From positions 73,782,001 to 73,846,000 of the forward strand of contig OZ076409.1 of the NCBI GenBank assembly GCA_964187785.1: 64,000 nucleotides of DNA, given 5' to 3'. Under the pieces are notes generated by a model that saw nothing but the letters and a program-made list of their open reading frames with translations, was not told where the DNA came from and searched no databases. The position numbers and the translations under genes are program-made. Numbering within the stretch: position 1 is the first letter of the stretch; the number at the start of each line of letters is the position of its first letter. Positions 7,760 through 64,000 of the stretch are shown piece after piece. This DNA is from Amphiscolops sp. MND2022 (Eukaryota).

Positions 7760-7781
7760 AATTCATTATCTTTTTCTTTAA

Positions 7782-8002: not shown

Positions 8003-8027
8003 TTTTTTTAACATTGATTTAATTTGG

Positions 8028-11598: not shown

Positions 11599-11793
11599 AA
11601 GTTTGCTTATTTTGAATTTGAGTATAACTATGTAACGACAACCCTTCCGCATTCTCTAACATCATTAACCACTAATTAACCTCTCAACCAACACCCGACT
11701 GAAGACGATTCTTCTCCAATCACGTAAGTAACTTTTTTCTCTTTTTAACACTTTCCCGCCTACTGGACTCTTCGTTTTGCCGTCCACGTCTAG

Positions 11794-14700
11794 GTGGTCG
11801 GTATTCTTTACTACCTCATGCTTTGAGGGCGGGGTAGGGCCCCTCGCCCGATCCTAATCCTTAGGATTTTAAACATAAGGCGAAAAGACCAAATGAAAGC
11901 GATCTCGAAAACTAACCTTACGATTTGGCTGAAATTTTGCATGCGGCTCCCTATGACAGATATAAGAACAAATCCCTACTGGCATTTTGCTGGGAAAATT
12001 CAGTTTTTGGGTCAAAATCACTATTTTAGGTCCAAAAAATGGCGTTTTTTCGGAAAATTTTTTTTCAAGAGCCAATATCTCGCTCCCAGGTGCTCGGAGC
12101 GGGTCGCATGTGGACGTTGATATTGCTGGGCACTTCGTAAGGAGTCCGTAGACAAATTTTGGTTCGGATCGGATGAAAATTGATAGAGTAATAGCCGCCG
12201 ATTTGGCGCATTTTTTCGCAAATTTTCGAAAACCTAGTCTATCTCTGCCGTTTTTTGCCCAGATTTTTTTCCAGGACCTCTCCTAAAGGCCTCCCCTGGC
12301 CGGTTTACCTCCCAGAAAAACCATTTGGCCCTTTTGCCGCAGTTTCAGCGTTCCAGGATTCCCCGGGTAAAATTAAAATGACTTAGAATTTTTTCGAAAA
12401 ATTTTCAAAAATTTTTTTTTTCAACTTCTTGCTCCCCAAAGTCAGGAAACTTCCACACAACTAGTATTGCAAGTGAATGCATGTGGAAAGTGCTCGAATA
12501 GACGAGAAAAATGAGCTATTATAAAACTCTGTAGCTTAACCTGACGTTGACTTATGACAATTTTTGTGTGAGCTTGCTATGTGAGAAAAAATTTCAAAAA
12601 TTGAAAATCGAAGATAAGTCTCATCCAAAACTCATCGGAATACGTTCAATCCATCCCAAAGCGGATTAATTCAAGCTATATAGTGCAGCAACACCATTCA
12701 AGGTCATTTAACCTATATTTATAATTTTTGACACCGTCTTATCCATTCGAAAGTTGAAGCAGTTAAGTACATTCCATCTCCCCTCCGTGGGAGATGGTAA
12801 TGTACGCGCAAAAAGCCAAGTACTATTGCCCTTTTTCTACATGGAGTGGACCTAGAAATGCATTAGCGTGAGCTCCACGCTGCTTGCAGTAGCCCTTACA
12901 GGTGTTGTACCTTTGTTACAAAACTAACTATGTTACTAATCATAAAAAAATGTTACAATCGAAAAATTATTTTCATTAATTATATTTACACGTTTTGTTG
13001 TCAATTACAATAACTACAGCTACCGCCCTGGCCTGATTGTTCAACCGTGCACGTCTAGGTGCCCGGATTTCTATTCATTAAAGTATGTTGCGCGTGTGGG
13101 TAGGGCCCCTGGCGCGCTCTTGTGTCCCTGTTCTCATAACTGCAATTTCCGGCAGCATTCTGAGCGATTTTCTAAACTATCCATACGATTCGGCTGAAAT
13201 TTGGCATGTGAGTTCCTATGACAGTTCTAAGAAACATTTCCTACTGGCGTTTTGCCCGGAAAATTTTTTTTGTTGACTTATAACGGTTTTTTTGGCCAAA
13301 AAATGCGATTTTTTCAAAAAAATTTTTTTTCGGAGCCCATATCTTTTTTCAGGGTGACCGGAGCGGGACGCGTTAAACTGATTATAAACTCTACGGTTCA
13401 TGGGCTTTACGGAGAACCTAGGCTCGTTTCGATCGGACAAATAGTCTTGGAGATATAACGGCATTTTTTGGGAATTTTTTGGAAATTTTTCTAACGGTCC
13501 AGCTTATCTTTGCCATTTTTTCGAAAATGTACTCGCCTAAAGGCCTCCCCTGGCCGGTTTTAATCCCAGCAAAACCATTTGGCCCTAAATACGGAGTTTC
13601 AGCGTTCCAGCATTCCCGGGCGAAAAGTTGTGGGACTTAGAAAAATTTCAAAATTTTTCAAAAAAATTTTTTCCGTTTTCCGCACTCCCCCCCGAGGGGA
13701 AAAGACCCCCCAACCAGTAATTTGAGTGAATTCATGTGGAAAGGCCATGTTTAGAGAAGAAAAATGCCGTTTAGATCGTCTTTTTATTTTAACCTGTCGT
13801 TGACTTATGTTGTTTTGAAGGTGATGTTTGGATGTGTGAAGCATGTGAAAAGGTAATTTATTGTGTCTTTAGCTCTTCTAAAAGTCATTGAGATACACGG
13901 TGTGTGACTCAGAACGTGTTTAATTCTAATTTAGCAATGCATCAACACTTTTTTGTGTCTTTTGACTCTGTTTTAAAAAATTTTTCCGACTAAAATCAAA
14001 AATTATTTATAATTATTCACATTTTTTTTCTGATCTCATGACTCCAAACAGTTGAGTACATTCCATCTCCCTTCACGGGGGAGATGAGAATGTACTCTTT
14101 AGAGACCAGGTACTACAGTACTTACCTTCCCCGAGCAACGCCCCATAAAAATTGCGTTTTGATCCAGATATTTTGACATAATTTTATCTTTGTAATTTGA
14201 CTGGAAATGAAGAAAATGCCGCACGTGCTCTTTTATATCAAGTATCTTAACAACGCCATCTCTTTTACGTCAACGCCCCATAGTTCACATCAACGCCCAC
14301 CGTCCGTGGGCATGCCGAGGCATGCCCTTCGACGATGTATACCAAGATATACCTTGAGCGCGTTAGCCTAGGTGCCATAATCCATTGATTAGCTCAACAC
14401 TTCGAGGGCGGGGTAGGGCCCCCAGCCCGAGTCAAAAGTCGAAGACTAACAACTTAAGGCCCATGGTACCTCGAGGTATCGATTTTCTAAACGAGCCATA
14501 CGATTTGGCTGAAATTTTGCATACGGCTTCCTATAACAATCCTAAGAACTAATCCCTCCTGGCGTTTTGCCCGGAAAAATCAAAAAGTGGGTCAAAATCT
14601 TAGTTTTTTGGTCGAAAAATGGCGTTTTTTCGAAAAATTTTTTTTCAAGAGCCCATATCTCGCCCCCAGGTGCTCGGAGCGGGTCGCACGTGGACGTTGA

Positions 14701-15656
14701 TATTGCTAGGCACTTCGTAAGGAGTCCGTAGACAAATTTTCGTACAGATCGGATAAAAATTGACTGAGTAATAGCCGCAAATCCGACGAATTTTTCAGAA
14801 AATTTTGGTACATCTAGTCTATCTCTGCCGTTTTTTGCCCAGATTTTTTTCCAGGACCTCTCCTAAAGGCCTCCCCTGGCCGGTTTACATCCCAGAAAAA
14901 CCATTTGGCCCTTTTGCCGCAGTTTCAGCGTTCCAGGATTCCCCGGGTAAAAGTAAAATGACTTAGAATTTTTTCGAAAAATTTTCAAAAATTTTTTTTT
15001 CAACTTCAAGCCCCCCAAAGTCAGGAAACGTCCACACAACTAGTATTGCAAGTGAATGCATGTGGAAAGTGCTCGAATAGACGAGAAAAATGAGCTATTA
15101 TAAACCTCTGTAGCTCAACCTGACGTTGACTTATGACAATTTTAGCGTGAGCTTGCTATGTGAGAAAAAATTTCAAAAATTGAAAATCGAGCTAAGTCTC
15201 ATCCAAAACTCATCGGAATACGTTCAATCCACCCTAAAGCGGTTTAATTCCAGTTACTAAGTGCAGCAACACCATTCAAGGTCATTTAACCCATATTTAT
15301 AATTTTTGACACCGTCTTATCCATTTGAAAGTTCGAAACAGTTGAGTACATTCCATCTCCCCTACGTGGGAGATGGTAATGTACTCGCAAAAAGCCAAGG
15401 TCCTACCGCCCTATTCTATCCGGCGTTGCATCAGAAATGCAGTAGCATGAGCTCCAGGTTGTTTGCAGTAGCCTTTACGTATGTTGTGACTATTTATTAC
15501 AATTCTAACTCTGTTACTAAACATGAAAAAATTGTTTCAATCCCAAAAATTTTCATTTCAACTTTAGTATGTCACCAATAAACATATATGCATCTTTCCT
15601 ACTACAACCACCCTACCACCCGGCCCCTTGTCCACTGTTCAACCGTGCACGTCTAG
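11794..15656 (+). mobile_element. Cassettes U1-U3, family A (1265, 1313, 1285 bp)
   Basis: Shared core AAAGGCCTCCCCTGGCCGGTTT..AAACCATTTGGCCC and GTACATT..AATGTAC hairpin; bounded by CTAG|GTG. Confidence 0.8.
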
Positions 15657-17847
15657 GTGGAGGTTATTTTATAATAATTAAAGTGTTTTTTTCCGGAGTT
15701 TGTGGCTTTGGAAAAAACAAAAGGCGAGAAATTGGGCACTCCGGGCTGAACCGTATACACTCAAAATTCGCCCAATATTTATACGATCTCGAAACCCAGC
15801 CGTACGATTTGGCTGAAAATTTGCATGCGGCTAAAAAATCAGATTCTAAGAACTATTTCCTGCTGACATTTTTTTGAAATTTTTGTGTACGTTTCCCCCC
15901 CGCCCCCTAAAGGGGTCAATTTTCCCCAATTTTGCACTTATGAGTCAAATTCTCAAAACTGGTGGATCTGAGCGTATTCCCAGCGGGGACAACTTTTAAC
16001 AAGCGCTCTTCAGTAGACCTTTTTGACTTTTTACTTTGGTGGTAGGTTCACCCCCCAAGGAGGAAATGGCGTTTTTGTGACTTCCGGTCGAGACTTTTTT
16101 TCACCCAAAAAATTGAAATAAGCCAGTTTTGAGCAGGAAGGAGTGGATTTGAAGTGTCTGTACCCTGCTAAAAATTTGTTGGGCTTGTAGCGATATATCT
16201 CATACCAAGTCTGGTTTTCATCCCCAAACCCCCCTTGAGACCAAAATTCAAACAAACATTTTACCTCTATTTGTCGTTTTTTTCACAAAATGTCGTCATT
16301 TCTATCGGCAAAGATTTGAATTAGGGGCTCCTAATAGCGTACCAAAGTTCAAGTACACTTGGAGTGCAATTGAGTGACCCTTTTTGGGCCTCTCGTGTGT
16401 TCGGCAATGACCGGAAGTGGTATAAACCCCCCTTTTTGACGTTTGTTGACCTTGAGACTCGCGCTTAGATGACGTTTGTGTCGCGCAAATCCTACAAACC
16501 AGTATTAGGATGACATGCTAGCCAACTAGAGAGCAATAAGGGAAACTATACTATACCGGAAGTAACCCCCTCTTGACCGGAAGTTGTCATTTTTGACCGG
16601 AAATGGTCCAAAACCTAGCGTGAAAGCAGTTTTTCATTGCTTTTAATGTCAACTTAATACTTTTTTCACTCTGCGCGAGCTTGCCTTCAGGTCCGTTAGT
16701 GTTGCCCGTGCACACTGCAACAAATATACATCTGTAAAGATTTGGCTATAATTTCGTCGGAGAGAGAAATAACGGATTTTTGTGATTTTTTTTCAAAAAT
16801 ATTAGTCTTTATCTGTCATTTTTACTCAACGTTATTGAAAAGTAGAACCACAGGTGTTAGTCTCTGCACAAATATATGTCTAACAAAAGCACTTGTTCCA
16901 TTGGTTGCAGTTTGAGCGATCTAGTTTTGCCTCGTCACAAGTTAGGGGACTTGAAAAACTTTCAAAATCTTTTCCGAACTTTTTTCTAAACGTCACGTCT
17001 CTCAAAGTTAAGAAACTTCCTCACAACTAGGACTGCAAGTGAATGCATGTGGTAAGACCTATAAATGGAGAGAAAAACTCCGTTTAGGACGTCTCTTTAT
17101 CTTAACGTGACGCTAAGAGATGTTGCTTTGAATGTGAGTTTGATAATGCGTCGAGAAGTAAAAGCGTGTAAATGGAACCTTTGTCTCGATAAATACTCAT
17201 TGCACAACACGCGATGAACCCCAATTACCCTCAGTTTCAGTTGTTTAGTACATCAACGTCTTCCAAAGACCTTTTATCTATTTTGAAAAGTGTCGAAATC
17301 AATATTGATATCAGTTATCATGAAACACTTGAGTACATTCTCATCTCTCCCCATCGGGTGAGATGAGAATGTTCTTGCTAAAAGCCAGGTACTACGGCCC
17401 CCTTTTGTTTTAATACGATGCATTCTCTGCTTTAGCACATATATATTTTATTTCGCCTGATTGCTTGTATACTCTCTGACTTGTTGTTATAAATCTCTCG
17501 TCATTACTTTACATAAATATACAACCAAAAATCATTATCGTCAACGCCACATACATTTAGACGCCCACCATTCCGTAGGTATGTCGAGGCATACCTTTCG
17601 ATTACGTATGTCAAAACGCAAACGCGATAAAAAGTGCTGAAAGTCTGAAACAGTGACAAACAATTTAGACTATTTGACATATGGTAGGTTTTAATATGGG
17701 AGTTACACATCACTGACATTTCACATCATTCCAGCTGACGCCCACATACCAACATCAACGCCCACCGTCCGTGGGCATGCCGAGGCATGCCCTTCGACGA
17801 CGTATGCCAATTTCTGCATATCTACACTCAATTGCGGTAGCAGCTAG
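15657..17847 (+). mobile_element. Cassette U4, family B (2191 bp)
   Basis: Homologous throughout to U11; ACCGGAA clusters; diverged family-A-like 3' half; GGGCATGCC palindrome before the terminal CTAG. Confidence 0.8.
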
Positions 17848-19237
17848 GTGGTTGGGGCGGTCCCCAGAACGCACAAGGAGGCGCGGGGAGGGTCCTGCGC
17901 CGACGTAGAATAATTTCATATAATACTAGTATCCTACATGGGTGTTTTAGAGGCGATTTTGGAATCTAACCGTAGGATTTGGATAATTTTTTGCATGCGG
18001 CCATAACTCGAAATTCTAAGAACTTTTTCCTACTGTCATTTTCCCCGCAAATTGTTTTTTGTTGACTTATGGCCGAAAAACCGGAAATAACGTCCTTTTT
18101 AGACGTTATATCCGAAGTGTCGTCATAACTTTTTTCCAGGGCATGCTAGCGTTCTCGTTCACTTTTACACTTAGTTGCAGCATCTCAAAATACAACTGGT
18201 GGAAAATTTTGGTTGCATTCGGATCACCCCCCACCGAGATAGAAGGGTTCCCCCCTCCAGCTTTACCCCCCAAATTTGCAAAATAGCCAATTTTGAGCAT
18301 GAAGCCGAGGATTTAGCGTACCCGCACCCTCCTGATGTTTTGTTGTACGTATTGGGGTCAATCTGACGACATGTGTGGTTTTCACCCCCAACCCCCCCTT
18401 GGACCGGAAATGACACTTTTTTGTGTTTTTTTGCAGAATTTAGCCTTTTTCATTATTAGGCAGTCGTTTTAGGGACTCCTAGCAGGATATCGAAATTGAA
18501 ATACAACCTGATCACAACCCAGTGACAATATGTTGGCCACTTGGAGGTATCATCATGACCGGAAGTGGGGTCAACGCCCCTTTTTGTGACCGCTTTTTGA
18601 CCTTGTGCACCAAAATGCCAACATCTTGAGGCCTAATGAGGCATTCAAATCTGTACAAAGATAAAATGTTAGACAACCGAAGTCCCGGAAGATCTTTAGC
18701 ATATACCGGAAGTTACCCCCCATGACCGGAAGTTACCCAATGTGACCGGAAATGGTCCAAAAATTAATGTAAAGTTGAATTTTTCACTATTTCAAGACCA
18801 GTTAATTGAAACTTTTCAATCTCAAAACTAGCGTACTGGCTTGTTTTGCTGAATTTATGGAAATTGATGAGCTCTATCGCCCCCGATAGCCTTCGAAGTT
18901 GACCTTGCGTCAACTTTGGAGGCTATCGATAGAGAAAAATGAACAACAAAGTACATTGTTGCTCTCGTTTTTTTTCCCGTTGTTTTTCCTCAAACATTTT
19001 TGAGACATATACATGGCCGTTAGTTGAAATCAATATTTAGCCCATGTTATAGCTGGAGCAGCGAAGCGTTACACAGACTAGTGTGGTTTTGAAATCACAC
19101 TATTTAAATTAACAACTGACCGTCTTAGTCAACTCCACACATTCATACCAACGCCCACCGTCTGTGGGCATGCCGAGGCATGCCCTTCGACGACGTATGA
19201 CGAATCCACTCCAACGACACCCGCAGTCCTCAGCTAG
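17848..19237 (+). mobile_element. Cassette U5, family C (1390 bp)
   Basis: Near-identical to U12 and U23; CGATAGCC..GGCTATCG hairpin at 18884-18928. Confidence 0.8.
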
Positions 19238-22200
19238 GTGCCCAAATCCATCGATTTACCTTCATTTTGAGGGCGGGGTAGGGCCCCCGACCGGCTCTTC
19301 AGGCTTTAGACTGGCAACTTTAAGCCATTTCGCAAAATGGAAGCGATTTTCTAAACGGCCCATACGATTTGGCTCAAATTTTGCATACGACTTCCTCTAG
19401 CGATTCTAAGAACTTTTCCCTACTACCATTTTGCCCGGAAAATTTTTTTTGTTGACTTATAGACAATTTTAGGTGCCAAAAATGGCGTTTTTTCGAAAAA
19501 TTTTTTTTCAAGAGCCCATATCTCGCTCCCAGGTGCTCGGAGCGGGTCGCATGTGGACGTCGATATTGCTAGGCACTTCGTAAGGAGTCCGTAGACAAAT
19601 TTTCGTACAGATCGGATGAAAATTGACTTAGTAATAAAAAACTTTGATTTGCATTTTTTCGAAAATTTCTGAAAACCCAGTCTATCTCTGCCGTTTTTTG
19701 CCCAGATTTTTTTCCAGGACCTCTCCTAAAGGCCTCCCCTGGCCGGTTTACCTCCCAGAAAAACCATTTGGCCCTTTTGCCGCAGTTTCAGCGTTCCAGG
19801 ATTCCCCGGGTAAAAGTAAAATGTCTTAGAATTTTTTCGAAAAATTTTCAAAAAAAATTTTTTTCAACTTCAGGCCTCCCAAAGTCAAGAAACGTCCACA
19901 CAACTAGTATTGCAAGTGGATGCATGTGGAAAGTGCTCGAATAGACGAGAAAAATGAGCTATTATAAACCTCTGTAGCTTAACCTGACGTTGACTTATGA
20001 CAATTTTAGTGTGAGCTTGCTATGTGAGAAAAAATTTCGAAAATTGAAAATCGAAGCTAAGTCTCATCCAAAACTCATCGGAATACGTTCAATCCATATC
20101 AAAGCGGTTTGTTCCCAGTTGTAGAGTGCAGCAACACCATTCAAGGTCATTTGACCCACTTTAATAGGTTTTGACTTTGTCTTATCCATCCGAAAATTCG
20201 AAACAGTTAAGTACATTCCATCTCCCCTCCGTGGGAGATGGTAATGTACTCGCAAAAAGCCAAGTATAACCGCCCTATTCTACCCGTAGTGGTGCTAGAA
20301 GAGCAGTAGCGTGAGCTCCAGGTTTGCAGTAGTCTCTATGTGTTATAATTATATTTTTCATAGCTAAAAATCTTACTAAACGTGATAAAAAAAATTACAT
20401 CACTCAAAATTTTTTCAAATATTATTATATGTCCCCAATTGACGCACGTCAACTATTTCACTACAACCACCCTACCACCCGGCCCCTCGTATCTTTGTTC
20501 AACCGTACACGTCTAGGTGCCAATCCCCCCCGGGATGCCACAACTTCGAGGGCGGGGTAGGGCCCCCTGCCCGAGTCCAAAACCAACGGCGCTAAACTTC
20601 GCGCCAGAAACTTAAGGCGTTTTCCATTTCTAGAGGCGATCTCGGAAACGGCCCTATAGAATTGGCTCAAAATTTGCATACGGCTTCCTCTAGCGATTCT
20701 AAGAACTTTTCCCTACTACCGTTTTGCCCAAAAAAATTTTTTTGTTGACTTATAGACAATTTTAGGTGCCGAAAATGGCGTTTTTTCGAAAAATTTTTTT
20801 TCAAGAGCCCATATCTCGCTCCCAGGTGCTCGGAGCGGGTCGCATGTGGACGTCGATATTGCTAGGCACTTCGTAAGGAGTCCGTAGACAAATTTTCGTA
20901 CAGATCGGATGAAAATTGACTTAGTAATAAAAAACTTTGATTTGCATTTTTTCGAAAATTTATGAAATCCCAGTCTATCTCTGCCGTTTTTTGCCCAGAT
21001 TTTTTTCTAGGACCTCTCCTAAAGGCCTCCCCTGGCCGGTTTACCTCCCAGAAAAACCATTTGGCCCTTTTGCCGCAGTTTCAGCGTTCCAGGATTCCCC
21101 GGGTAAAAGATAAATGACTTAGAATTTTTTCAAAAAATTTTCAAAATTTTTTTTTCAACTTCAGGCCTCCCAAAGTCAAGAAACGTCCACACAACTAGTA
21201 TTGCAAGTGGATGCATGTGGAAAGTGCTCGAATAGACGAGAAAAATGAGCTATTATAAACCTCTGTAGCTCAACCTGACGTTGACTTATGACAATTTTAG
21301 TGTGAGCTTGCTATATGGTAAAAAAATTCAAAAGATGAAAATTGAAGCTAAGTCTCATCCAAAACTCATCGGAATGCGTTCAATCCATCCCAAAGCGCTT
21401 TGTTCCCAGTTGTAGAGTGCAGCAACACCATTCGAGGTCATTTAACCCATATTTATAAGTTTTGACACCGTCTTATCCATCCGAAAGTTCGAAACAGTTA
21501 AGTACATTCCATCTCCCCTCCGTGGGAGATGGTAATGTACTCGCAAAAAGCCAAGTATCACCGCCCTATTCTACCCGTAGTTGTGCTAGAAATGCAGCAG
21601 CGGGAGCGCCAGGCTGTTTACAGTAGCCTTTACGGGTGTTGTGACTATGTATTACAAATCTAACTATGTTACTGAACGTGAAAAAATTGTTTCACTCCAA
21701 AATTTTTTTCAACTATTTTATGTCATCAATAAAGATATATCCATCTTTCCTACTACAACCACCCTACCACCCGGCCCCTCGTATCTTTGTTCAACCGTAC
21801 ACGTCTAGGTGCAGATCCCCTTTGGGATGCCTTAGTTTCGAGGGCGGGGTAGGGCCCCCAGCCCGAGTCCTAGTAAAAACAACGTAAGGCGATTATAACA
21901 GTCTCCTATCGATTTTGGAAATGGCCCATACGATTTCGCTCAAATTTTGCATACGGCTTCCTCTAGCGATTCTAAGAACTTTTCCCTACTACCGTTTTGC
22001 CCGGAAAATTTTTTTTGTTGACTTATAGACAATTTTAGGTGCCGAAAATGGCGTTTTTTCGAAAAAATTTTTTTCAAGAGCCCATATCTCGCTCCCAGGT
22101 GCTCGGAGCGGGTCGCATGTGGACGTCGATATTGCTAGTCACTTCGTAAGGAGTCCGTAGACAAATTTTCGTACAGATCGGATGAAAATTGACTTAGTAA

Positions 22201-41700: not shown

Positions 41701-42568
41701 TTTCGCAAATTTTTGAAAACCTAGTCTATCTCTGCCGTTTTTTGCCCAGATTTTTTTCCAGGTCCTCTCCTAAAGGCCTCCCCTGGCCGGTTTACTTCCC
41801 AGAAAAACCATTTGGCCCTAAATACGGAGTTTCAGCGTTCTAGCATTCCCGGGCGAAAAGATGTGGGACTTAGAAAAAATTCAAAATTTTTCAATAAATT
41901 TTTTTTTCGTTTTCCGGCCCCCCAATGAAGGGGAACGACCCCCCAACGAGGATTTTTGGTGAATTCATGTGGAAAGGCCTTGTTTTGTGGAGCAAATTGC
42001 CGTTTAGAGCAACTTTTTATCTTAACTTGACGTTGACCTCTGTCGTTTTGAATTTGATATTAGTATGTGTTGAGCATGTGAAAAGTTGATGATTTCAGTT
42101 GTTCTCTCGTGTTCAAGCCATTGAGATACAAGCGGTAGTGATCGAAATGTGATTTATCGCAATTTGATGGTGCTTTTGGTGTATTTTGACTCTTTTAAAT
42201 AAAAAGTTGTTCTTCATATATTTGGTGTATTGATTCAAATGAACAAGAAACACTTGAGTACATTTCATCTCCCCCCTTGTGGGGGAGATGAGTATGTACC
42301 CGCTAAATGACACGCACAATGGCCCAATTTTACTTTTATGCGACGTTTACTAGGCTTTTGCGCAAGCCCACTATTACTTAGACTGGTTTCCTTTTCTTTT
42401 ACTCCAAAATTTTCCGTACTAACCACCTTACGCACCACCAGCTCATCGTAACATCTGTAACGCCAACGCCACATACTCTCACTAACGCCCACCGTCTGTG
42501 GGCATGCCGAGGCATGCCCTTCGACGACGTATGCCAAATAGCGCCACAGGGCGCCCAATTTTGTCTAG
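38721..42568 (+). mobile_element. Cassettes U19-U21, family A (1279, 1282, 1287 bp)
   Basis: Family A core; internal unit starts at 40000 and 41282. Confidence 0.8.
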
Positions 42569-51300: not shown

Positions 51301-54300
51301 TGAGTCTTTATCTCATCGGAAAACCATTGAGATACAAGCAGTTTTGCTAAAAACGATTTTCATTGTAGGTTAGCAGAGTATTAGTACACTTTGATGTCAT
51401 TTGAGTATTTTTTTCTTCTATATAATAACTGTTTTTATGTATTTATTCCAATTTATCTCATCTTTTAACATCAAGCAGTTGAGTACATTTCATCTCCCTT
51501 TCGGGGGAGATGAGAATGTACTCGCTAAAAACCTAATGCTATGGCGCCAATGTTTGGATGGGAAGTTTTCTATGCTTTGAAAAAAGTTATTTTTAATTAC
51601 TTGATTTTTTAAAACAATAATTAACATGAAGTACATTACTTGCTCCTACTACTACCACCATACATCTCTAACGTCAACGCCCCCTGCTTGCATCAACGCC
51701 CCATCGTCCGTGGGCATGCCGAGGCATGCCCTTCGACGACGTATGCCAAATGCCCAGTGCCACGCAGTCTTTCCCCGCTAGGTGGCCGTGTCTTTTCGAC
51801 GTGCTTTTGCATTGAGGAGTGGGTAGGGCCCCGCGACGACCTAGAAGAATTGGATGCTCACCGAAACGTGCAGAATTCTACGAGATCTCATAGTTTGAGC
51901 CATACGATTTTTCTGAAATTTGGCATGTGGCCTGGAATTGGTGAGTAGGTAAAACGTGTAGGAGGTGATTTTTCCCAAATTCCACTGTGAGACGAGATAT
52001 GGGCAAATAACGGTCCCAAAAATGGCAAAAATGCACTTTTTTCAACTTTGTCAGCCCATATCTCTTTTCCAGGTGCCCGTAGCGTTCCGCACGTGGACAT
52101 CAATATTGCTCAGCGCTGTCGGAGGAGTGCGTGGACAAATTTTGGTTTAAATCGGACTTAAACTTGACGAGAAATTAACGGTTTTTTGGGCGTTTCCGGG
52201 GTAAATTTTTTAACGGTCCAGCTTATCTTTGCCATTTTTTCGAAACTGTACATGCCTAAAGGCCTCCCCCTGGCCGAATTTACTCCCAGCAAACCCATTT
52301 GGCCCTAAATACGGAGTTTCAGCGTTCCAGCATTCCGGGGCGGAAAGTTGTGGGACTTGGAAAAATTTCAAAATTTTTTCAAAAAATTTTTTTCCCGTTT
52401 TCCGGGCCCCCAATGAAGGGGAACGACCCCCCAACCAGTATTTTGAGTGAATTCATGTGGAACGCCCATGTTTGGCGGTGAAAAATGCCGTTTAGAACAT
52501 CTTTTTATCTTAACTTGACATTGACTTATGACGTTTTGAATGTGATGTTAGGATATATGAAGCATGTTAAAAGTTGAAGTTTTGAGTCTTTATCTCATCG
52601 GAAAACCATTGAGATACAAGCATTTTTGCTAAAAACGATTTTCATTGTAGGTTAGCAGAGTATTAGTACACTTTGATGTCATTTGAGTATTTTTTTCTTC
52701 TATATAATAACTGTTTTTATGTATTTATTCCAATTTATCTCATCTTTTAACATCAAGCAGTTGAGTACATTTCATCTCCCTTTCGGGGGAGATGAGAATG
52801 TACTCGCTAAAAACTTAATGCTATGGCGCCAATGTTTGGATGGGAAGTTTTCTATGCTTTGAAAAAAGTTATTTTTAATTACTTGATTTTTTAAAACAAT
52901 AATTAACATGAAGTACATTACTTGCTCCTACTACTACCACCATACATCTCTAACGTCAACGCCCCCTGCTTGCATCAACGCCCCATCGTCCGTGGGCATG
53001 CCGAGGCATGCCCTTCGACGACGTATGCCAAATGCCCAGTGCCACGCAGTCTTTCCCCGCTAGGTGCCGGGATTTCCATTCGATAAGGAATTCTGCGCGT
53101 GTGGGTAGGGCCCCTGGCGCGCTCCTGTGTTTTCGGTTTTCCTACTCCAAATTCACACCCCAGTTATCTCCGATCTCGTAAACTATCCATACGATTTGGC
53201 TGAAATTTGGCACACGTACCCCCCTCGGCACGGTGAAGATGATTCCCTACTGACGTTTTGCCCGCTAAACATTTTTTGTTGACCAAAATAACGGTTTTTG
53301 GTGGAAAATTTTCAACTTTTTTTAAATTTCATCTTATATCTCGCCCCAGGTTTACGCTAGCGCTTCAAAACCTTGCTGACGAAAGTTTGCAAACTGTCTC
53401 AGGAATGCGGTGTGAAATTTTCAGCTCAATCGGACTTAAACTCGAGGAGATATAGCGTTTTTCCGGAGCGGGGGGGTTTCATTTTTCTAACGGTCCATCG
53501 TATCTTTGCCATTTTTTCGAAAATGCACTCGCCTAAAGGCCTCCCCTGGCCGGTTTTACTCCCAAAAAAACCATTTGGCCCTAAATACGGGGTTTCAGCG
53601 TTCTAGCATTTCCGGGCGAAAAGTTGTGGGACTTAGAAAATTTCAAAAAGTTTCAAAAAATTTTTTTCCGTTATTTGGGCCCCCAATGTGGGGGAAAGGA
53701 CCCCCCAACCAGTATTTTGAGTGAATGCATGTGCAAAGCGCTTGTTTAGAGGAGAAAAATGTCGTTTAGAACGTCTTTTTATCTTTACTCAACGTTGACT
53801 TATGACGTTTTGAAGGTGATGTAAAGAGGTGTGAAGCACGTGAAAAGTAAACGTTATGAGTATTTATTTGATCTGAAAGCCATTCAGATGCAATCTGATT
53901 TGCCCAAAACGTAATTCATTTCAGTTTGGCAGTCAATCAACACCCTTTGTTGTCGTTTTACATATTTTTTTGTTGATATAATAAAAAATTTTGTGTATTT
54001 ATTTATTTTTTTCTCATCAAATAACTTGAAACAGTTGAGTACATTCCATCTCCCTTCCCGGGGGAGATGAGAATGTACTCGCAAAAAGCCCCGAACTATG
54101 GCCCTTACCTTCCCGAGCTACGCAGTATAAAGATTGCATATTGGTTTCGACATTTTGATAGAGTTATATCTTGGTAATCTGTCTGGATATGCAGAAAAAT
54201 CAGCACGTGCCTTTTTATACCAAGTTGCTCACAACGACAATTATTTTATATCAACGCCCCCATATTTATCAACGCCCCCCGTCCGTGGGCATGCCGAGGC

Positions 54301-57300
54301 ATGCCCTTCGACGACCCGCACCAAAATATACTCCCAAGCGCGGTAGCGGCTAGGTGCCGGTGTCTTTTTACACAATGGGGGAAGTTGCGCGGTTGGGGAG
54401 GGTCCCTGACGCGCTTCCGTGAGATCAGGTTTTTCAACTAGTGAAATCGACAAAGAAAATTGAGATCTCGTAAACTAGCCATACGATTTGGCTGAAATTT
54501 GGCACACGTACCCCCCTCGGCACGGTGAAGATGATTCCCTACTGACGTTTTGCTCGCTAAACATTTTTTGTTGACCAAAATAACGGTTTTTGGGGTAAAA
54601 TTTTCAACTTTTTTTAAATTTCATCTTATATCTCGGCACGGGTACACGCTAGCGCTTTCAAACCTTGCTGACGAAAGTTTGCAAACTGTCTCAGGAATGC
54701 TGTGTGAAATTTTCAGCTCAATCGGACTCAAACTCGAGGAGATATAGCGTTTTTCCGGAGCGGGGGGGTTTCATTTTTCTAACGGTCCAGCTTATCTTTG
54801 CCATTTTTTCGAAAATGTACTCGTCTAAAGGCCTCCCCTGGCCGGTTTTATTCCCAGCAAAACCATTTGGCCCTAAATACGGAGTTTCAGCGTTCCAGCA
54901 TTTCCGGGCGAAAAGTTGTGGGACTTAGAAAATTTCAAAAATTTTCAAAAAATTTTTTTTCCGTTATTTGGGCCCCCAAAGTGGGGGAAAAGACCCCCCA
55001 ACCAGTAAAGCAAGTGAATGCACGTGCAAAGCCCTTGTTTGGACGAGAAAAATGCCGTTTAGAACGTCTTTTTATCTTGACTCAACGTTGACTTATGACG
55101 TTTTGAAGGTGATGTTTGGAGGTGTAAAGCAAGTGAATAGTAAACGTTATGAGTATTTATCTGATCTGAAAGCCATTGAGATGCAATATGGTTTGCTCAA
55201 AACGTAATTCATTGCAGTTTGGCAATCAATCAACACCCTTTGTTGTCGTTTGACATACTTTTTTGTTGTTATAATAAAAAATTTTGTGTATTTATTCATT
55301 TTTTTCTCATCAAATAACTTGGAACAGTTGAGTACATTCCATCCCCCCCTTCCGGGGGAGATGAGAATGTACTCGCAAAAAGCACCGAACTACGGTCCTT
55401 ACCTTCCCGAGCTACGCAGTATAAGGATTACATATTGGTTCCGACATTTTCATAGAGTTATATCTTGGTAATCTGTCTGGATATGCCGAAAAATCAGCAC
55501 GTGCCTTTTAATACCAAGTTGCTCACAACGACAATTATTTTATATCAACGCCCCCATATTTATCAACGCCCCCCGTCCGTGGGCATGCCGAGGCATGCCC
55601 TTCGACGACCCGCACCAAAATATGCGTTAGCGCGGTAGCCGCTAGGTGGCCGGAAATTTTTTTTTTCATCAAAATCTTTGCCATTGGGGGAGGGGCCCCG
55701 GATGGCCAGTAGTTCGGCTTGGCTACCTGCAAAATCAGGTACAAAAAAACACGATCTCAAAATTGGCCCGTCAGAAATCGCTCATTTTTTGCATGCGGCC
55801 CTAAAATCAATATATAAGAACAAAGTCCTGCTGACGTTTTGCCGAAAAAACATTTTTTGTTGACCAAAAATAACATTTTTCATGCCAAAATGACTGTTTT
55901 TTCACATTTTTCAACTTTGAGAGCTCATATCTCGTTCCCAGGTACCCGGAGCGGTTCGCACGTGAACTGCAATATTGCTCAGCGTTGTTAACGGAGTGCG
56001 TGGACAAATTTTGGTCCAAATCGGACTTAAACTCGGGGAGATGTAAACGGATTTTTGGGGGTTTCCGGGGTAAATTTTTTAACGGTCCAGCTTATCTTTG
56101 CCATTTTTTGGAAAATGTACTCGCCTAAAGGCCTCCCCCTGGCCGAATTTACTCCCAGCAAAACCATTTGGCCCTAAATACGGCGTTTCAGCGTTCTAGC
56201 ATTTGCGGGCGAAAAGTTGTGGGACTTAGAAAAAATTCAAAATTTTTCAAAAATTTTTTTTTCGTTTTCCGGCCCCCCAATGAAGGGGAACGACCCCCCA
56301 ACTAGGATTTTTGGTGAATCCATGCGAAAACGTCTTGTTTAGTGGAGAAAAATGCCGTTTAGAGCGACTTTTTATCTTAACTTGACGTTGACTTATGTCG
56401 TTTTGAATTTGATATTAGTATGTGTTGAGCATGTGAAAAGTTGAACATTTCAGTTGTTCTTTCGTGTTAGCCATTGAGATACAAGCTGTAGTGATCAAAT
56501 TGTGATTTTTTGCAGTTTCGTGGTGCTTTTGGTGTATTTTGATTCTTTTGATAAAAATTTGTTCTTTATATATTGACAATTTTGGTGTATTGATTCAAAT
56601 GAACATGAAACAGTTGAGTACATTTCATCTCCCTCTTGGGGGAGATGAGAATGTACTCGCTAAAGTCCTAGTACTATGACCCATTTTTGTTTTTATCAGA
56701 CGCAGATACTGCCAACGGATACTTTTTGTTGGTGCCACTTTCCTGTGCACAATGTCTTTAGAAGCTAGAAAACTCTATGTCTCTAGCTTACTTCTCCTAC
56801 AAATTCGTCACCAACGTCAACGCCACACACTTTCACTAACGCCCACCGTCTGTGGGCATGCCGAGGCATGCCCTTCGACGACGTATGCCAAATAGCGCCA
56901 CAGGGCGCCCAATTTTGTCTAGGTGGCCGTGTCTTTTCGACGTGCTTTTGCATCGAGGAGTGGGTAGGGCCCCGCGACGACCTAGAAGAATTGGATGCTC
57001 ACCGAAACGTGCAGAATTCTACGAGATCTCATAGTTTGAGCCATACGATTTTTCTGAAATTTGGCATGTGGCCTGGAATTGGTGAGTAGGTAAAACGTGT
57101 AGAAGGTAATTTTTCCCAAATTCCACTGTGAGAGGAGATATGGGCAAATAACGGACCCAAAAATGGCAAAAATGCACATTTTTCAACTTTGTCAGCCAAT
57201 ATCTCTTTTCCAGGTGCCCGTAGCGTTCCGCACGTGGACATCAATATTGCTCAGCGCTGTTGGAGGAGTGCGTGGACAAATTTTGGTTTAAATCGGACTA

Positions 57301-60300
57301 AAACTTGACGAGAAATTAACGGTTTTTTGGGCGTTTCCGGGGTAAATTTTTTAACGGTCCAGCTTATCTTTGCCATTTTTTCGAAAATGTACATGCCTAA
57401 AGGCCTCCCCCTGGCCGAATTTACTCCCAGCAAACCCATTTGGCCCTAAATACGGAGTTTCAGCGTTCCAGCATTCCGGGGCGGAAAGTTGTGGGACTTG
57501 GAAAAATTTCAAAATTTTTTCAAAAATTTTTTTTCCCGTTTTCCGGGCCCCCAATGAAGGGGAACGACCCCCCAACCAGTATTTTGAGTGAATTCATGTG
57601 GAAAGCCCATGTTTGGAGGAGAAAAATGCCGTTTAGCACATCTTTTTATCTTAACTTGACATTGACTTATGACGTTTTGAATGTGATGTTAGGATATATG
57701 AAGCATGTTAAAAGTTGAAGTTTTGAGTCTTTATCTCATCGGAAAACCATTGAGATACAAGCAGTTTTGCTAAAAACGATTTTCATTGTAGGTTAGCAGA
57801 GTATTAGTACACTTTGATGTCATTTGAGTATTTTTTTCTTCTATATAATAACTGTTTTTATGTATTTATTCCAATTTATCTCATCTTTTAACATCAAGCA
57901 GTTGAGTACATTTCATCTCCCTTTCGGGGTAGATGAGAATGTACTCGCTAAAAACCTAATGCTATGGCGCCAATGTTTAGATGGGAAGTTTTCTATGCTT
58001 TGAAAAAAGTTATTTTTAATTACTTGATTTTTTAAAACAATAATTAACATGAAGTACATTACTTGCTCCTACTACTACCACCATACATCTCTAACGTCAA
58101 CGCCCCCTGCTTGCATCAACGCCCCATCGTCCGTGGGCATGCCGAGGCATGCCCTTCGACGACGTATGCCAAATGCCCAGTGCCACGCAGTCTTTCCCCG
58201 CTAGGTGGCCGTGTCTTTTCGACGTGCTTTTGCATTGAGGAGTGGGTAGGGCCCCGCGACGACCTAGAAGAATTGGATGCTCACCGAAACGTGCAGAATT
58301 CTACGAGATCTCATAGTTTGAGCCATACGATTTTTCTGAAATTTGGCATGTGGCCTGGAATTGGTGAGTAGGTAAAACGTGTAGAAGGTAATTTTTCCCA
58401 AATTCCACTGTGAGAGGAGATATGGGCAAATAACGGACCCAAAAATGGCAAAAATGCACATTTTTCAACTTTGTCAGCCAATATCTCTTTTCCAGGTGCC
58501 CGTAGCGTTCCGCACGTGGACATCAATATTGCTCAGCGCTGTTGGAGGAGTGCGTGGACAAATTTTGGTTTAAATCGGACTAAAACTTGACGAGAAATTA
58601 ACGGTTTTTTGGGCGTTTCCGGGGTAAATTTTTTAACGGTCCAGCTTATCTTTGCCATTTTTTCGAAAATGTACATGCCTAAAGGCCTCCCCCTGGCCGA
58701 ATTTACTCCCAGCAAACCCATTTGGCCCTAAATACGGAGTTTCAGCGTTCCAGCATTCCGGGGCGGAAAGTTGTGGGACTTGGAAAAATTTCAAAATTTT
58801 TTCAAAAATTTTTTTTCCCGTTTTCCGGGCCCCCAATGAAGGGGAACGACCCCCCAACCAGTATTTTGAGTGAATTCATGTGGAAAGCCCATGTTTGGAG
58901 GAGAAAAATGCCGTTTAGCACATCTTTTTATCTTAACTTGACATTGACTTATGACGTTTTGAATGTGATGTTAGGATATATGAAGCATGTTAAAAGTTGA
59001 AGTTTTGAGTCTTTATCTCATCGGAAAACCATTGAGATACAAGCAGTTTTGCTAAAAACGATTTTCATTGTAGGTTAGCAGAGTATTAGTACACTTTGAT
59101 GTCATTTGAGTATATTTTTCTTCTATATAATAACTGTTTTTATGTATTTATTCCAATTTATCTCATCTTTTAACATCAAGCAGTTGAGTACATTTCATCT
59201 CCCTTTCGGGGGAGATGAGAATGTACTCGCTAAAAACCTAATGCTATGGCGCCAATGTTTGGATGGGAAGTTTTCTATGCTTTGAAAAAAGTTATTTTTA
59301 ATTACTTGATTTTTTAAAACAATAATTAACATGAAGTACATTACTTGCTCCTACTACTACCACCATACATCTCTAACGTCAACGCCCCCTGCTTGCATCA
59401 ACGCCCCATCGTCCGTGGGCATGCCGAGGCATGCCCTTCGACGACGTATGCCAAATGCCCAGTGCCACGCAGTCTTTTCCCGCTAGGTGCCCGGATTTCT
59501 ATTCATTAAAGTATGTTGCGCGTGTGGGTAGGGCCCCTGGCGCGCTCTTGTGTCCCTGTTCTCATAACTGCAATTTCCGGCAGCATTCTGAGCGATTTTC
59601 TAAACTATCCATACGATTCGGCTGAAATTTGGCACACGTACCCCCCTCGGCACGGTGAAGATGATTTCCTACTGACGTTTTTCCCGCAAAATTTTTTTTG
59701 TTGTCCAAAATAACGGTTTTTGGGGTAAAATTTTGAATTTTTTTTAAATTTTATCTTATATCTCGCCACGGGTTTACGCTAGCGCTTCAAAGCCCTGCTA
59801 AAGAAAGCTTGCAAACTGTCTCAGGAATGCTGTGTGAAATTTTCAGCTCAATCGGACTCAAACTCGGGGAGATATAGCGTTTTTCCGGAGCGGGGGGGTT
59901 TCATTTTTCTAACGGTCCAGCTTATCTTTGCCATTTTTTCGAAAATGCACTCGCGTAAAGGCCTCCCCTGGCCGGTTTTATTCCCAGCAAAACCATTTGG
60001 CCCTAAATACGGAGTTTCAGCGTTCCAGCATTCCCGGGCGAAAAGTTGTGGGACTTAGAAAAGTTCAAAAATTTTCAAAAAATTTTTTTTCCGTTTTCCG
60101 CCCTCCCCCCCTAGGGGAAAAGACCCCCCAACCAGTAATTTGAGTGAATTCATGTGGAAAGGCCATGTTTAGAGGAGAAAAATGCCGTTTAGAACGTCTT
60201 TTTATCTTGGCTCAACGTTGACTTATGACGTTTTGAAGGTGGTGTTTGGAGGTGTAAAGCACGCGAATAGTAAACGTTATGAGTATTTATCTGATCTGAA

Positions 60301-63300
60301 AGCCATTGAGATGAATATGGTTTGCTCAAAACGTAATTCATGGCAGTTTGGCAATCAATCAACACCCTTTGTTGTCGTTTGACATACTTTTTTGTTGTTA
60401 TAATAAAAAATTTTGTGTATTTATTCATTTTTTTCTCATCAAATAACTTGAAACAGTTGAGTACATTCCATCCCCCCTTCCGGGGGAGATGAGAATGTAC
60501 TCGCAAAAAGCACCGAACTACGGCCCTAACCTTCGCGAGCTACGCAGTATAAGGATTACATATTGGTTCCGACATTTTCATAGAGTTAAATCTTGGTAAT
60601 CTGTCTGGATATGCAGAAAAACCAGCACGTGCTTTTTTATACCAAGTTGCTTACAACGACAATTATTTTATATCAACGCCCCCATATTTATCAACGCCCC
60701 CCGTCCGTGGGCATGCCGAGGCATGCCCTTCGACGACGTATACCAAGATATTCCCGAGCGCGTTAGCCTAGGTGCCAATCCCCCCCGGGATGCCACAGCT
60801 TCGAGGGCGGGGTAGGGCCCCCTGCCCGAGTCCAAAACCAACGGCGCTAAACTTCGCGCCAGAAACTTAAGGCGTTTTCCATTTCTAGAGGCGATTTCGA
60901 AAACGGCCCATTCGATTTGGCTCAAATTTTGCATGCGGCTTCCTCTAGCGATTCTAAGAACTTTTCCCTACTACCATTTTGCCCGGAAAATTTTTTTTGT
61001 TGACTTATACACAAATTTAGGTGCCGAAAATGGCGTTTTTTCGAAAAATTTTTTTTCAAGAGCCCATATCTCGCTCCCAGGTGCTCGGAGCGGGTCGCAT
61101 GTGGACGTCGATATTGCTAGGCACTTCGTAAGGAGTCCGTAGACAAATTTTCGTACAGATCGGATGAAAATTGACTTAGTAATAAAAAACTTTGATTTGC
61201 ATTTTTTCGAAAATTTCTGAAAACCCAGTCTATCTCTGCCGTTTTTTGCCCAGATTTTTTTCCAGGACCTCTCCTAAAGGCCTCCCCTGGCCGGTTTACC
61301 TCCCAGAAAAACCATTTGGCCCTTTTGCCGCAGTTTCAGCGTTCCAGGATTCCCCGGGTAAAAGTAAAATGTCTTAGAATTTTTTCGAAAAATTTTCAAA
61401 AATTTTTTTTTCAACTTCAGGCCTCCCAAAGTCAAGAAACGTCCACACAACTAGTATTGCAAGTGGATGCATGTGGAAAGTGCTCGAATAGACGAGAAAA
61501 ATGAGCTATTATAAACCTCTCTAGCTTAACCTGACGTTGACTTATGACAATTTTAGTGTGAGCTTGCTATGTGAGAAAAAATTTCAAAAATTGAAAATCG
61601 AAGCAAAGTCTCATCCAAAACTCATCGGAATACGTTCAATCCATACCAAAGCGGTTTGTTCCCAGTTGTAGAGTGCAGCAACACCATTCAAGGTCATTTG
61701 ACCCACTTTAATAGGTTTTGACTTCGTCTTATCCATCCGAAAACTCGAAACAGTTAAGTACATTCCATCTCCCCTCCGTGGGAGATGGTAATGTACTCGC
61801 AAAAAGCCAAGTACTACCGCCCTATTCTACCCATAGTGGTGCTAGAAATGCAGTAGCGTGAGCTCCAGGTTGTTTGCAGTAGTCTCTATGTGTTATAATT
61901 ATATTTTTCATAGCTAAAAATCTTACTAAACGTGATAAAAAAAATTACATCACTCAAAATTTTTTCAAATATTATTATATGTCCCCAATTGACGCACGTC
62001 AACTATTTCACTACAACCACCCTACCACCCGGCCCCTCGTATCTTTGTTCAACCGTACACGTCTAGGTGCCCAAATCCATCGATTTACCTTCACTTTGAG
62101 GGCGGGGTAGGGCCCCCGACAGGCTCCTCAGGCTTTAGACTGGCAACTTTAAGCCATTGTGCAAAATGAAAGCGATTTTCTAAACGGCCCATACGATTTG
62201 GCTGAAATTTTGCATACGGCTTCCTCTAGCAATTCTAAGAACTAATCCCTACTGGCGTTTTGCCCGGAAAAATCAAAAAGTTGGTCAAAATCACTATTTT
62301 AGGTGCCGAAAATGGCGTTTTTTCGAAAATTTTTTTTTCAAGAGCCCATATCTCGCTTCCAGGTGCTCGTAGCGGGTCGCATGTGGACGTTGATATTGCT
62401 AGGCACTTCGTAAGGAGTCCGTATACAAATTTTCGTTCCGATCGGATAAAAATTGACTGAGTAATAGCCGCAAATCGGACGAATTTTTCCGGAAATTTTG
62501 GTGCAACTAGTCTATCTCTGCCGTTTTTTGCCCAGATTTTTTTCCAGGACCTCTCCTAAAGACCTCCCCTGGCCGGTTTAGCCCCCAAAAAAACCATTTG
62601 GCCCTTTTGCCGCAGTTTCAGCGTTCCAGGATTCCCCGGGTAAAAGTAAAATGTCTTAGAATTTTTTCGAAAAATTTTCAAAAATTTTTTTTTTCAACTT
62701 CAGGCCTCCCAAAGTCATAGAACTTCCACACAACTAGTATTGCAAGTGAATGCATGTGGAAAGTGCTTGAATAGACGAGAAAAATGAGCTATTATAAACC
62801 TCTGTAGCTTAACCTGACGTTGACTTAAGACAATTTTAGTGTGAGCTTCCTATGTGAGAAAAAATTTCAAAAATTGAAAATCGAAGCTAAGCCTCATCCA
62901 AAACTCATCGGAATACGTTCAATCCATCCCAAAGCGGTTTGTTCCCAGTTGTAGAGTGCAGCAACACCATTCAAGGTCATTTGGCCCACTTTAATAGGTT
63001 TTGACTTTGTCTTATCCATCCGAAAATTCGAAACAGTTAAGTACATTCCATCTCCCCTCCGTGGGAGATGGTAATGTACTCGCAAAAAGCCAAGTACTAC
63101 CGCCCTATTCTACCCGTAGTGGTGCTAGAAATGCAGTAGCGTGAGCTCCAGGTTGTTTGCAGTAGCCTTTACGTATGTTGTGATTATGTATTACAATTCT
63201 AACTCTGTTACTAAACATTAAAAAATTGTTTCAATCCCAAATTTTTTTCAACCTTAGTATGTCACCAATAAAGATATATCCATCTTTCCTACTACAACCA

Positions 63301-64000
63301 CCCTACCACCCGGCCCCTCGTATCTTTGTTCAACCGTACACGTCTAGGTGCCCTAACCCATCGGTTTACCTTCATTTTGAGGGCGGGGTAGGGCCCCCGA
63401 CCGGCTCCTCAGGCTTTAGACTGACAACGTAAGGCGCTTTTCAGTTGTAGAGACGATCTCGAAAATGGCCCATACGATTTTGCTCAAATTTTGCATACGG
63501 CTTCCTCTAGCGATTCTAAGAACTTTTCCCTACTACCATTTTGCCCGGAAAAATCAAAAAGTGGGTCAAAATCTTAGTTTTTTGGTCGAAAAATGGCGTT
63601 TTTTCAGAAAATTTTTTTCAAGAGCCCATATCTCGCTCACAGGTGCTCGGAGCGGGTCGCATGTGGACGTTGATATTGCTAGGCACTTCGTTAGGAGTCC
63701 GTAGACAAATTTTGGTTCAGATCGGATAAAAATTGACAGAGTAATAGCCGCAAATCCGACGAATTTTTCAGAAAATTTTGGTACACCTAGTCTATCTCTG
63801 CCGTTTTTTGCCCAGATTTTTTTCCAGGACCTCTCCTAAAGGCCTCCCCTGGCCGGTTTACCTCCCAGAAAAACCATTTGGCCCTTTTGCCGCAGTTTCA
63901 GCGTTCCAGAATTCCCCGGGTAAAAAATAAATGACTTAGATTTTTTTCGAAAAATTTTCAAAAAATTTTTTTTCAACTTCAGGCCTCCCAAAGTCAAGAA
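45358..64000 (+). mobile_element. Cassettes U24-U38, family A subtypes (1277-1295 bp; U38 truncated by window)
   Basis: Fourteen complete units and one partial; includes near-identical pairs U28/U29 and U33/U34, and U26/U35. Confidence 0.8.

Follow-up and report, generated by a model that had tools for sequence, protein, structure and literature searches.

The stretch of DNA analysed here, referred to as the window, is 64,000 nucleotides (nt) long and comes from Amphiscolops sp. MND2022 (C1:73,782,001-73,846,000; OZ076409.1, assembly GCA_964187785.1). It lies within an array of Helitron-like elements (HLEs) in which autonomous elements encoding a RepHel transposase and non-autonomous units are joined end to end at an exact, short junction. 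The left part of the window (1..11793, + strand) is the 3' 11.8 kb of one autonomous element, an array member with the ends of unit family A1 that terminates in CACGTCTAG. The first junction, CTAG|GTG (11790..11796, +), joins this tail to unit 1, with the cut probably between 11793 and 11794. The remainder (11794..64000, +) is filled without gaps by 37 complete non-autonomous units and a further one that the window end truncates.

To describe the junctions, the heptamer CTAGGTG was counted across the window. The + strand carries 38 copies, from 11790 to 63344, and the − strand two; a first-order Markov model predicts 1.14 per strand. The initial annotation had reported 38 such junctions in a gap-free array of one orientation, and the count bears this out. 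There is no spacer DNA, the heptamer is always followed by C (18 junctions) or G (20 junctions), and the unit lengths and order given previously are reproduced by the junction intervals. In 42 pairs of units with at least 97% identity, the value is 98–100% over the 20 bases just within the ends and about 40% over the 20 bases beyond them. Because identity drops at the heptamer, CTAG|GTG is a true homology boundary. The five body types proposed at first hold as length classes but conceal 15 clusters among the 37 complete units at 78% identity over 95% of length (19 clusters at 90%, 30 at 97%), and body type A comprises many families. The junctions had been described as lying between different families, but among the 37 unit–unit junctions there are 9 with the same cluster on both sides (a count derived from the unit clustering). 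The heptamer is the only boundary within the window; some families elsewhere end in CTGG, making CTRG|GTG the general form. No frame longer than 150 codons was found within 11794-64000, and an Rfam search gave 0 matches.

The units, all on the + strand, follow one another in mixed order. Units 1-3 (11794..15656) are A1 (1,265 bp), A2-type (1,313 bp) and A1 (1,285 bp), with the head hairpin of unit 1 formed around a GGGKAGGGYCC core (11827..11849). Units 4-5 (15657..19237) belong to families B (2,191 bp) and C (1,390 bp), and units 6-9 (19238..24363) are three A1 and one A2-type. Units 10-16 (24364..36580) are D, B, C, A2-type, C, D and a member of a second 1.99-kb family, followed by two E units of 1,070 bp each (units 17-18, 36581..38720). 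Units 19-24 (38721..46642) come from three separate 1.28-kb families and a 1.40-kb family that is not C, followed by one C and one A1 unit. Unit 25 (46643..47930) is discussed below. Units 26-38 (47931..64000) are of mixed 1.28-kb families, the last three being A1 and the final one cut by the window end.

The window's autonomous element is 14,548 bp long and starts at a CTAG|GTG 2,754 bases left of the window, so its left end begins with GTG after CTAG as the initial annotation had anticipated. Its principal gene is an intron-free RepHel–GIY-YIG frame of 2,376 codons stop to stop (629..7759, +; first ATG 641). The HUH Rep core (3755..4543, +) contains motif 1 FVTFTCN (3755), motif 2 RAEFQ..HYH (3980-4024) and motif 3 YLTSY with two tyrosines (4529, +). 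It is followed by a PIF1-like helicase match (aa 1777-1914; 5957..6370, +) and a C-terminal GIY-YIG nuclease match (aa 2262-2333; 7412..7627, +). The Helitron_like_N and PIF1 Pfam matches exceed the cut-off, and GIY-YIG was matched in 7 of the 12 relatives scanned, in 6 of them above the Pfam cut-off. In a profile built from 42 relatives, the three Rep motifs line up with those of Helraiser in the same order (E 0.0014). A Rep structure predicted from the 42-relative alignment reached a pLDDT (model confidence score) of 83.8, whereas single-sequence prediction gave only 34; Helraiser 7LCC (E 1.8e-8) was the sole fold match at E<=0.001. Relatives are numerous, forming 628 clusters at E<=0.001. 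Sequence comparison indicates that the RepHel genes of the array are intact and under purifying selection, the ratio of nonsynonymous to synonymous substitution (dN/dS) being 0.10-0.27 in six pairs of array copies; for the more distant of these, dS approaches saturation.

A second open reading frame (ORF), ORF2, of 335 codons (9687..10694, +), has no Pfam match. Its neighbours by protein language model (Atlas) are OB-fold single-stranded DNA-binding proteins, a weak lead that it may be an OB-fold protein. A 65-bp tandem repeat in 6 copies (1..388, +) carries a 20-nt motif, ATCGACGA..GCGTGG, and 52-bp and 91-bp tandem repeats lie 3' of the RepHel frame (7815..8195, +). The 20-nt motif occurs in tandem before RepHel, after RepHel and near the tail (1-388, 7815-8002 and 11503-11609). 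It was found in 3-13 copies in 5/7 autonomous units of the surrounding 244 kb and in 0/92 non-autonomous units, and is possibly a regulatory or binding site. Some relatives differ in content. An OTU protease match accompanies RepHel in P0018, P0032, P0051, P0058 and P0083, two of these above the cut-off. Two members of one relative's cluster, 42-50 aa long and too short to speak to host range, are labelled fungal (Entrophospora). The 15,255-bp unit at C1:73,847,893 has two extra frames upstream of RepHel (331 codons, −; 292 codons, +) that are not present in sister elements and are possibly captured or inserted sequence.

The array is real and larger than the initial annotation stated. In the 244 kb around the window, 99 complete units follow each other directly. 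Of these, 7 are autonomous; their frames measure 2,345-2,411 codons and their proteins are 30–99% identical. On C1 the array spans at least 5.9 Mb, from at least 70.540 Mb to 76,487,313, where CTAG|GT leads into non-array DNA. All eight five-kb samples taken from 70.8 to 75.4 Mb are array and all three flanking samples (70.40, 76.55 and 76.80 Mb) are non-array; continuity between samples is assumed, with one 200-N gap near 70.69 Mb. The left end was not located, with array present at 70.540 Mb and none at 70.400-70.405 Mb. At 2.42 kb per unit this extrapolates to about 2,400 units. Genome-wide, 137 Rep matches were obtained from 134 of 438 candidates scored. At least 34 of the 137 lie inside the C1 array, all on the + strand, and 27 of these have frames of at least 2,200 codons. 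Other arrays are present on C1, C2, C3, C6, C8 and C10, those on chromosomes other than C1 being smaller.

Family content shifts along C1 70.5-76.5 Mb: 2-kb families predominate in the samples at 70.8-73.2 Mb, and the A1 tail pattern is met in exact form only from 73.46 Mb onwards. At C2 102.05-103.91 Mb and C3 2.4-3.9 Mb, Rep matches are on the − strand at the left and the + strand at the right of each region. Non-array DNA separates the − and + parts on C2, where the + array begins CTCG|GTG near 102,691,775 and reaches the contig end. A telomeric role for the arrays was considered and rejected, as the C2 array meets the contig end without telomere repeat and the C1 array is interstitial. At L096 (C12:40,257,130-40,259,700) a piece of about 340 bp from inside A1 stands in about 8 tandem copies upstream of a broken autonomous copy. 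Three loci came from a metagenome scan (L167-L169, 7.5-12 kb); they lack the head motif and contain a single isolated CTGG|GTGG.

Arrays also outnumber solitary copies, as had been predicted. A1 tails are followed by G in 171/190 cases and E tails in 196/197, the sole exception being a head that begins ATG. Among the first 100 listed of the 176 family C heads, 97 follow CTAG and one each follows CTGG, TTAG and CTTG. Outside the C1 array, 6/6 intact-ORF copies examined sit in arrays and 0/4 broken-ORF copies examined sit in clean arrays. Units of mini-arrays in host DNA reach 99.4% identity to C1 array units. The canonical HLE1- and HLE2-type elements of this genome are dispersed, unlike the arrayed lineage: the best HLE1-type matches are spread over many chromosomes, and 0/42 genome-wide DUF6570 matches fall inside three large arrays.

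The ends of the elements were defined from the 99 units of the 244 kb. All start GTG, and 99/99 end CTAG or CTGG. By these sequences the element runs GTG…CTRG, not TC…CTRR. Six host insertions with both flanks reveal the target. L098 (three units) and L099 (four units) are inserted at CTTG|AT, and single sites are CTGG|GT (L131), CTTG|GT (L136/L191), TTAG|GT (L189) and CTCA|GT (L187). The claim that units are never nested holds within the window, but in an array on C8 two whole units have inserted into another, at CTTG|GT and CTGG|GT, and divide it into pieces of 1,112, 13 and 164 bp. Both empty sites are retained in three intact paralogs, among them unit 25 of the window, where they are CTTG|GT after 47753 and CTGG|GT after 47766 (+). 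No target-site duplication is seen at these two sites, in agreement with the initial annotation.

CTNG|RT fits 6/8 of these two-sided sites outside junctions. T at the second position and RT after the cut are found at 8/8, and the bases flanking the cut are G|A, G|G or A|G. Flanks available only at the left are CTCG twice and CTTG once. The 19 A1 tails not before G are followed by AT (13), TA (5, one duplicated locus) or CT (1). The search patterns left out certain bases by design and the base frequencies are biased accordingly. The target count leaves aside L118 and L128, which have an 18-base head match with no BLAST hit to any unit, and L130, an old copy of about 75% identity with left flank TTTA, whose right end was not found. 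A cut placed one base earlier (CTA|GGTG) was also considered and is ruled out only by L187 and L130, together with the analogy to Helraiser.

Since the element starts GTG and ends CTRG, every junction renews the target. On this sequence logic an insertion would leave CTNG|GT at its left and CTRG|RT at its right, either of which is again a target. At L146 (C1 near 38,074,420) an E tail (CTAG|GT) is separated from the following head (CTTG|GTG) by a 78-bp stretch that matches no other fetched locus. This stretch is either a remnant between two nearby target sites or flank captured by end bypass.

To examine how unit order arises, sequence linkage was compared across junctions and inside units over the 244 kb. 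Among 4,753 junction pairs, the left 200-mer is common to 69 and the right to 71 (98% identity). Both sides are common in only 2 pairs (p 0.25; mean of the permutations 0.99), compared with 33-46 pairs at three points inside units (p<0.001). Linkage across junctions is therefore at chance and strong inside units. Similarly, in 14 non-adjacent pairs that are at least 99% identical, a near-identical neighbour was found 0 times at the left and once at the right. The 99 units form 73 clusters at 97%, with 1 repeated doublet and 0 repeated triplets at that threshold. Besides its 98 junctions the 244 kb contains 388 other CTNG|RT sites, and at 0/388 of them is a unit interrupted. Chance-level linkage together with the unused internal sites suggests that units move singly and prefer junctions. 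Because 388 copies of the motif are unused, CTNG|RT alone is not enough to explain that preference. The proposal that the junction is the preferred target thus stands in part: it is a rearrangement breakpoint and matches the consensus of host and nested targets, but the heptamer is not used exclusively, as CTNG|RT sites, solitary copies and nested insertions exist.

One candidate for the additional signal lies in the unit heads. A GGGKAGGGYCC-type core about 35-50 bases in was found in 49/67 clusters of 80-mers following CTRG|GTGS. It sits inside stems of differing sequence in the heads of most families. Inspection by eye of the 18 clusters lacking the core identified 13 as chance matches and 5 as heads with a shifted, variant or absent motif.

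The autonomous elements were then matched to unit families. The window element and four others have a head of about 770-820 bp (91-96% identity) and the CACGTCTAG tail in common with A1 only. One 30%-identical autonomous element has A2-type head and tail segments, and another has 1.8 kb in common with a 2.4-kb family. Because the ends of different autonomous elements match different families, the array is, on sequence grounds, a community of several transposase lineages and their derivatives rather than a set of cassettes served by one enzyme. The suggestion that the adjacent RepHel supplies the whole array is not supported, given its A1-only ends and at least 34 Rep matches in the array with lineages down to 30% identity. 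The 12,908-bp unit at C1:73,737,316 carries the 30%-identical RepHel and no ORF2 of at least 250 codons; in it 873 bp of A1 sequence run directly into an A2-type head at base 5 of that head, an imprecise deletion join.

These features were compared with known systems. By sequence the lineage is Helitron-like: it has a Y2 HUH Rep with three motifs and a fused PIF1-type helicase, and the two empty sites in intact paralogs lack target-site duplication. It resembles canonical Helitrons (HLE1; Helraiser 7LCC) in its Y2 HUH Rep–PIF1 protein, CTRR 3' end, lack of duplication and non-autonomous partners with common ends. Precise head-to-tail circle junctions have been reported for Helraiser, whose target is A|T (PMC4778049). 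The lineage differs in its 5' GTG instead of TC, its CTNG|RT target instead of A|T, its conserved 5' hairpins, its C-terminal GIY-YIG and its arrayed rather than dispersed copies. It also has no consistent 3' hairpin near the end. The HLE1-type hairpin of 16-20 nt located 10-15 nt from the 3' end is not found in A1 or its autonomous partners; some families have a near-terminal 3' hairpin, and 50/99 units have a palindrome about 45-70 nt upstream of the end. The Rep is far from the HLE1 family of this genome. A quick Rep tree separates 28 rows of the lineage from the HLE1 (2) and HLE2 (5) rows of this genome (SH-aLRT support 99), in a sample with few outgroups, one HLE1 family, rows chosen by similarity and a long-branch warning.

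Likeness to HLE2 (Helentron, Helitron2, proto-Helentron) includes an Arg before Rep motif 2, hairpins near the 5' end and the OTU domain in some relatives. Proto-Helentron also ends CTAG (PMC4067079), and one moss HLE2 family has captured GIY-YIG (PMC11417382). In Rep motif 2 an invariant R precedes ExQ, but the consensus is GNLPHxH, the residues diagnostic of HLE2 being R before the motif and S between G and P. The subterminal inverted repeats of HLE2 (11-18 nt) were not found in 26 cluster representatives, where the longest head-tail inverted match is 5-9 nt at inconsistent positions. The TT insertion of HLE2 was not seen at the two-sided sites, and neither DUF6570 nor an AP endonuclease was matched in P0001 or 12 relatives. 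The lineage is set apart from HLE1 by its 5' end and target, and from HLE2 by inverted repeats, target and DUF6570.

In target logic the lineage resembles the IS91 family, of which it is not a member. IS91 uses, without duplication, a tetranucleotide target resembling its terminal cleavage site: CTTG is preferred, the terminus is cleaved at CTCG, and the second base is always T (PMC13181058). In the present lineage CTTG, CTGG, CTCG and CTAG are read 5' of the cut. IS91 itself is bacterial and has a Y2 transposase without helicase, whereas PIF1 is fused here, and large mixed arrays are not described for IS91 in the available text of PMC13181058. Helitron and IS91 transposases have been described as independent in origin (PMC10288648).

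Clustered Helitrons are known from plant centromeres, Hydractinia subtelomeres, Meloidogyne centromeres and Paramecium, and like the present array they are tandem or clustered, up to megabase scale. Hydractinia arrays consist of a single subfamily with variable unit lengths and decayed copies (bioRxiv 2024.11.21.624632). In Meloidogyne centromeres HLE1 is interleaved with satellites (PMC13404089). Plant centromeric tandems contain truncated copies ascribed to concatemers (PMC5148889; bioRxiv 2024.11.21.624632). Paramecium has a target-specific, orientation-biased third Helitron clade whose target is the host telomeric repeat (PMC13085455). No mixed-family, exact, junction-targeted Helitron arrays were found in the full-text literature available; subscription journals, Repbase, Dfam and supplements lie outside that scope and a library entry may exist. 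Repeated targeted insertion also builds the head-to-tail retrotransposon arrays of Drosophila telomeres (PMC13534243) and the tandems of R1 and other double insertions (PMC5932611). Those are retrotransposons or DDE elements, and R1-type tandems keep duplicated host target between copies, where nothing lies between units here. The array differs from satellite DNA in having no homogenised monomer or higher-order repeat (73 clusters in 99 units, no repeated triplet).

Bacterial integrons are ordered, single-orientation arrays of discrete units joined at a short conserved site. In them a tyrosine recombinase gene lies beside a fixed attI site and the cassettes carry genes. Here the units are gene-less, insertion is not limited to a single site next to the enzyme gene, and the array itself contains repeated enzyme genes as members. 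No tyrosine recombinase was matched by Pfam in the two window proteins. The label integron-like, applied at first, is thus an analogy only, with no tyrosine recombinase, gene cassettes or single fixed insertion site.

We propose that a divergent RepHel lineage builds these arrays unit by unit, through junction-preferring rolling-circle insertion with IS91-like target logic, and give this reading a probability of about 0.72. Whole units would be inserted singly, in fixed orientation and without target duplication, at CTNG|RT. Junctions would be strongly preferred over other copies of the motif, so that arrays grow at existing joints. By analogy with Helraiser and IS91 chemistry, RepHel may nick one strand at CTRG|GT and peel the unit off. 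A unit circle closed at CTAG|GTG may then be exchanged with the target site. Nicking at the junction, which the initial annotation had also assumed, is something we infer by that analogy. The least secure step is that the conserved head hairpin just 3' of the cut makes junctions preferred. Recombination within homologous units acts additionally and does not account for order. The ends, the target consensus, the absence of duplication, the empty sites and the junction as a breakpoint are read directly from the sequences compared.

Several observations weigh against this proposal. The target sample is small, and 6/19 A1 tails not before G lack a following AT (5 of them one duplicated locus). At least two imprecise joins occur: the A1 fragment mentioned above runs into base 5 of an A2 head, and one unit stops at an internal CTTG where its paralogs continue CT. 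Family B has no GGGKAGGGYCC hairpin, although it has another long head hairpin, and only 28/49 motif-bearing heads fold better than shuffled flanks at z<-1 (median z −1.3). Mosaic sequence is evident in the A1 units: as distance increases, r2 declines from 0.31 to 0.05 (permutation p<0.001), and 46/528 A1 pairs look chimeric, with one sixth of the unit at least 99% and another at most 90% identical. Recombination or conversion inside A1 units is therefore real. Breakpoints scattered inside units, named previously as evidence for pure unequal crossover, are present to this extent, and the junction is a breakpoint as well. Whole-unit gene conversion gives near-identical units with different neighbours and could mimic part of the linkage result. 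Order is also not random, with 28 A1-A1 adjacencies against about 15 expected and 23 same-cluster neighbours against 10 expected. The clustering of A1-type units suggests cognate preference or local re-insertion. No direction of array growth could be read from the two mini-arrays.

Alternatively, transposition may only seed short arrays, which unequal crossover and gene conversion then expand and shuffle as in a satellite. This is unlikely, though the recombination signal within A1 units is clear, single-family runs occur locally and family content varies by region along the array. Conversion that stops at a non-homologous neighbour would also lower linkage across the junction. However, crossover inside units retains tail-to-next-head pairs and yields block duplications, the opposite of chance-level linkage with a single doublet at 97%. 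The 73 clusters among 99 units represent no homogenisation, and nested and host insertions prove unit-wise insertion.

Rolling-circle read-through, in which RepHel skips terminators, copies several units and inserts the concatemer, has been invoked for plant centromeric Helitrons. End bypass is reported for both Helraiser and IS91 (PMC4778049, PMC13181058), the three- and four-unit host mini-arrays could each be a single event, and short same-family runs exist (E up to five). Nevertheless we regard read-through as improbable here, since multi-unit copying retains neighbours and near-identical units do not share them; how 30%-identical lineages were first joined at exact ends would also be left unexplained. 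It is very unlikely that insertion occurs at any CTNG|RT and that arrays dominate because a tolerant or host-useful (for example centromeric) region retains them while dispersed copies are purged or decay. In its favour, host and nested insertions use the same motif, and of the copies examined outside the C1 array 6/6 with an intact ORF sit in arrays, as against 0/4 broken ones in clean arrays. Within the array, however, survival should be the same for insertions on the opposite strand or in the bodies of units, yet 0/388 sites are used and there is one orientation.

Unit-by-unit insertion at junctions may also be part of a broader picture, which we offer tentatively and at somewhat less than even odds. 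The elements would form a separate major RepHel lineage with GIY-YIG and an OB-fold ORF. The transposase of this lineage would be a single-strand recombinase specific for the junctions that the elements themselves create. The array would be a multi-megabase safe harbour where 30%-identical lineages share a target code and intact copies persist, possibly a chromosome-structural domain.

Tandem Helitron arrays were already known; no published account of mixed, exact and junction-targeted ones was found in the literature searched. How dispersed transposons turn into megabase tandem arrays is an open question, usually answered by unequal exchange or by the insertion of concatemers. The present sequence points towards a third route, in which elements insert repeatedly and exactly at junctions of their own making. 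It also shows a Helitron-like element of a eukaryote following target logic like that of IS91. Because the transposases are intact and the ends are short and well defined, the third route is open to direct testing. Structure-based Helitron finders that look for TC…CTRR or terminal inverted repeats would overlook GTG…CTRG ends, and such arrays may therefore be labelled satellite elsewhere. A nuclease that re-creates its own target could serve for repeated seamless DNA insertion. If the transposase is indeed a single-strand recombinase, its junction would be a self-renewing, scar-free, orientation-fixed landing site for large DNA.

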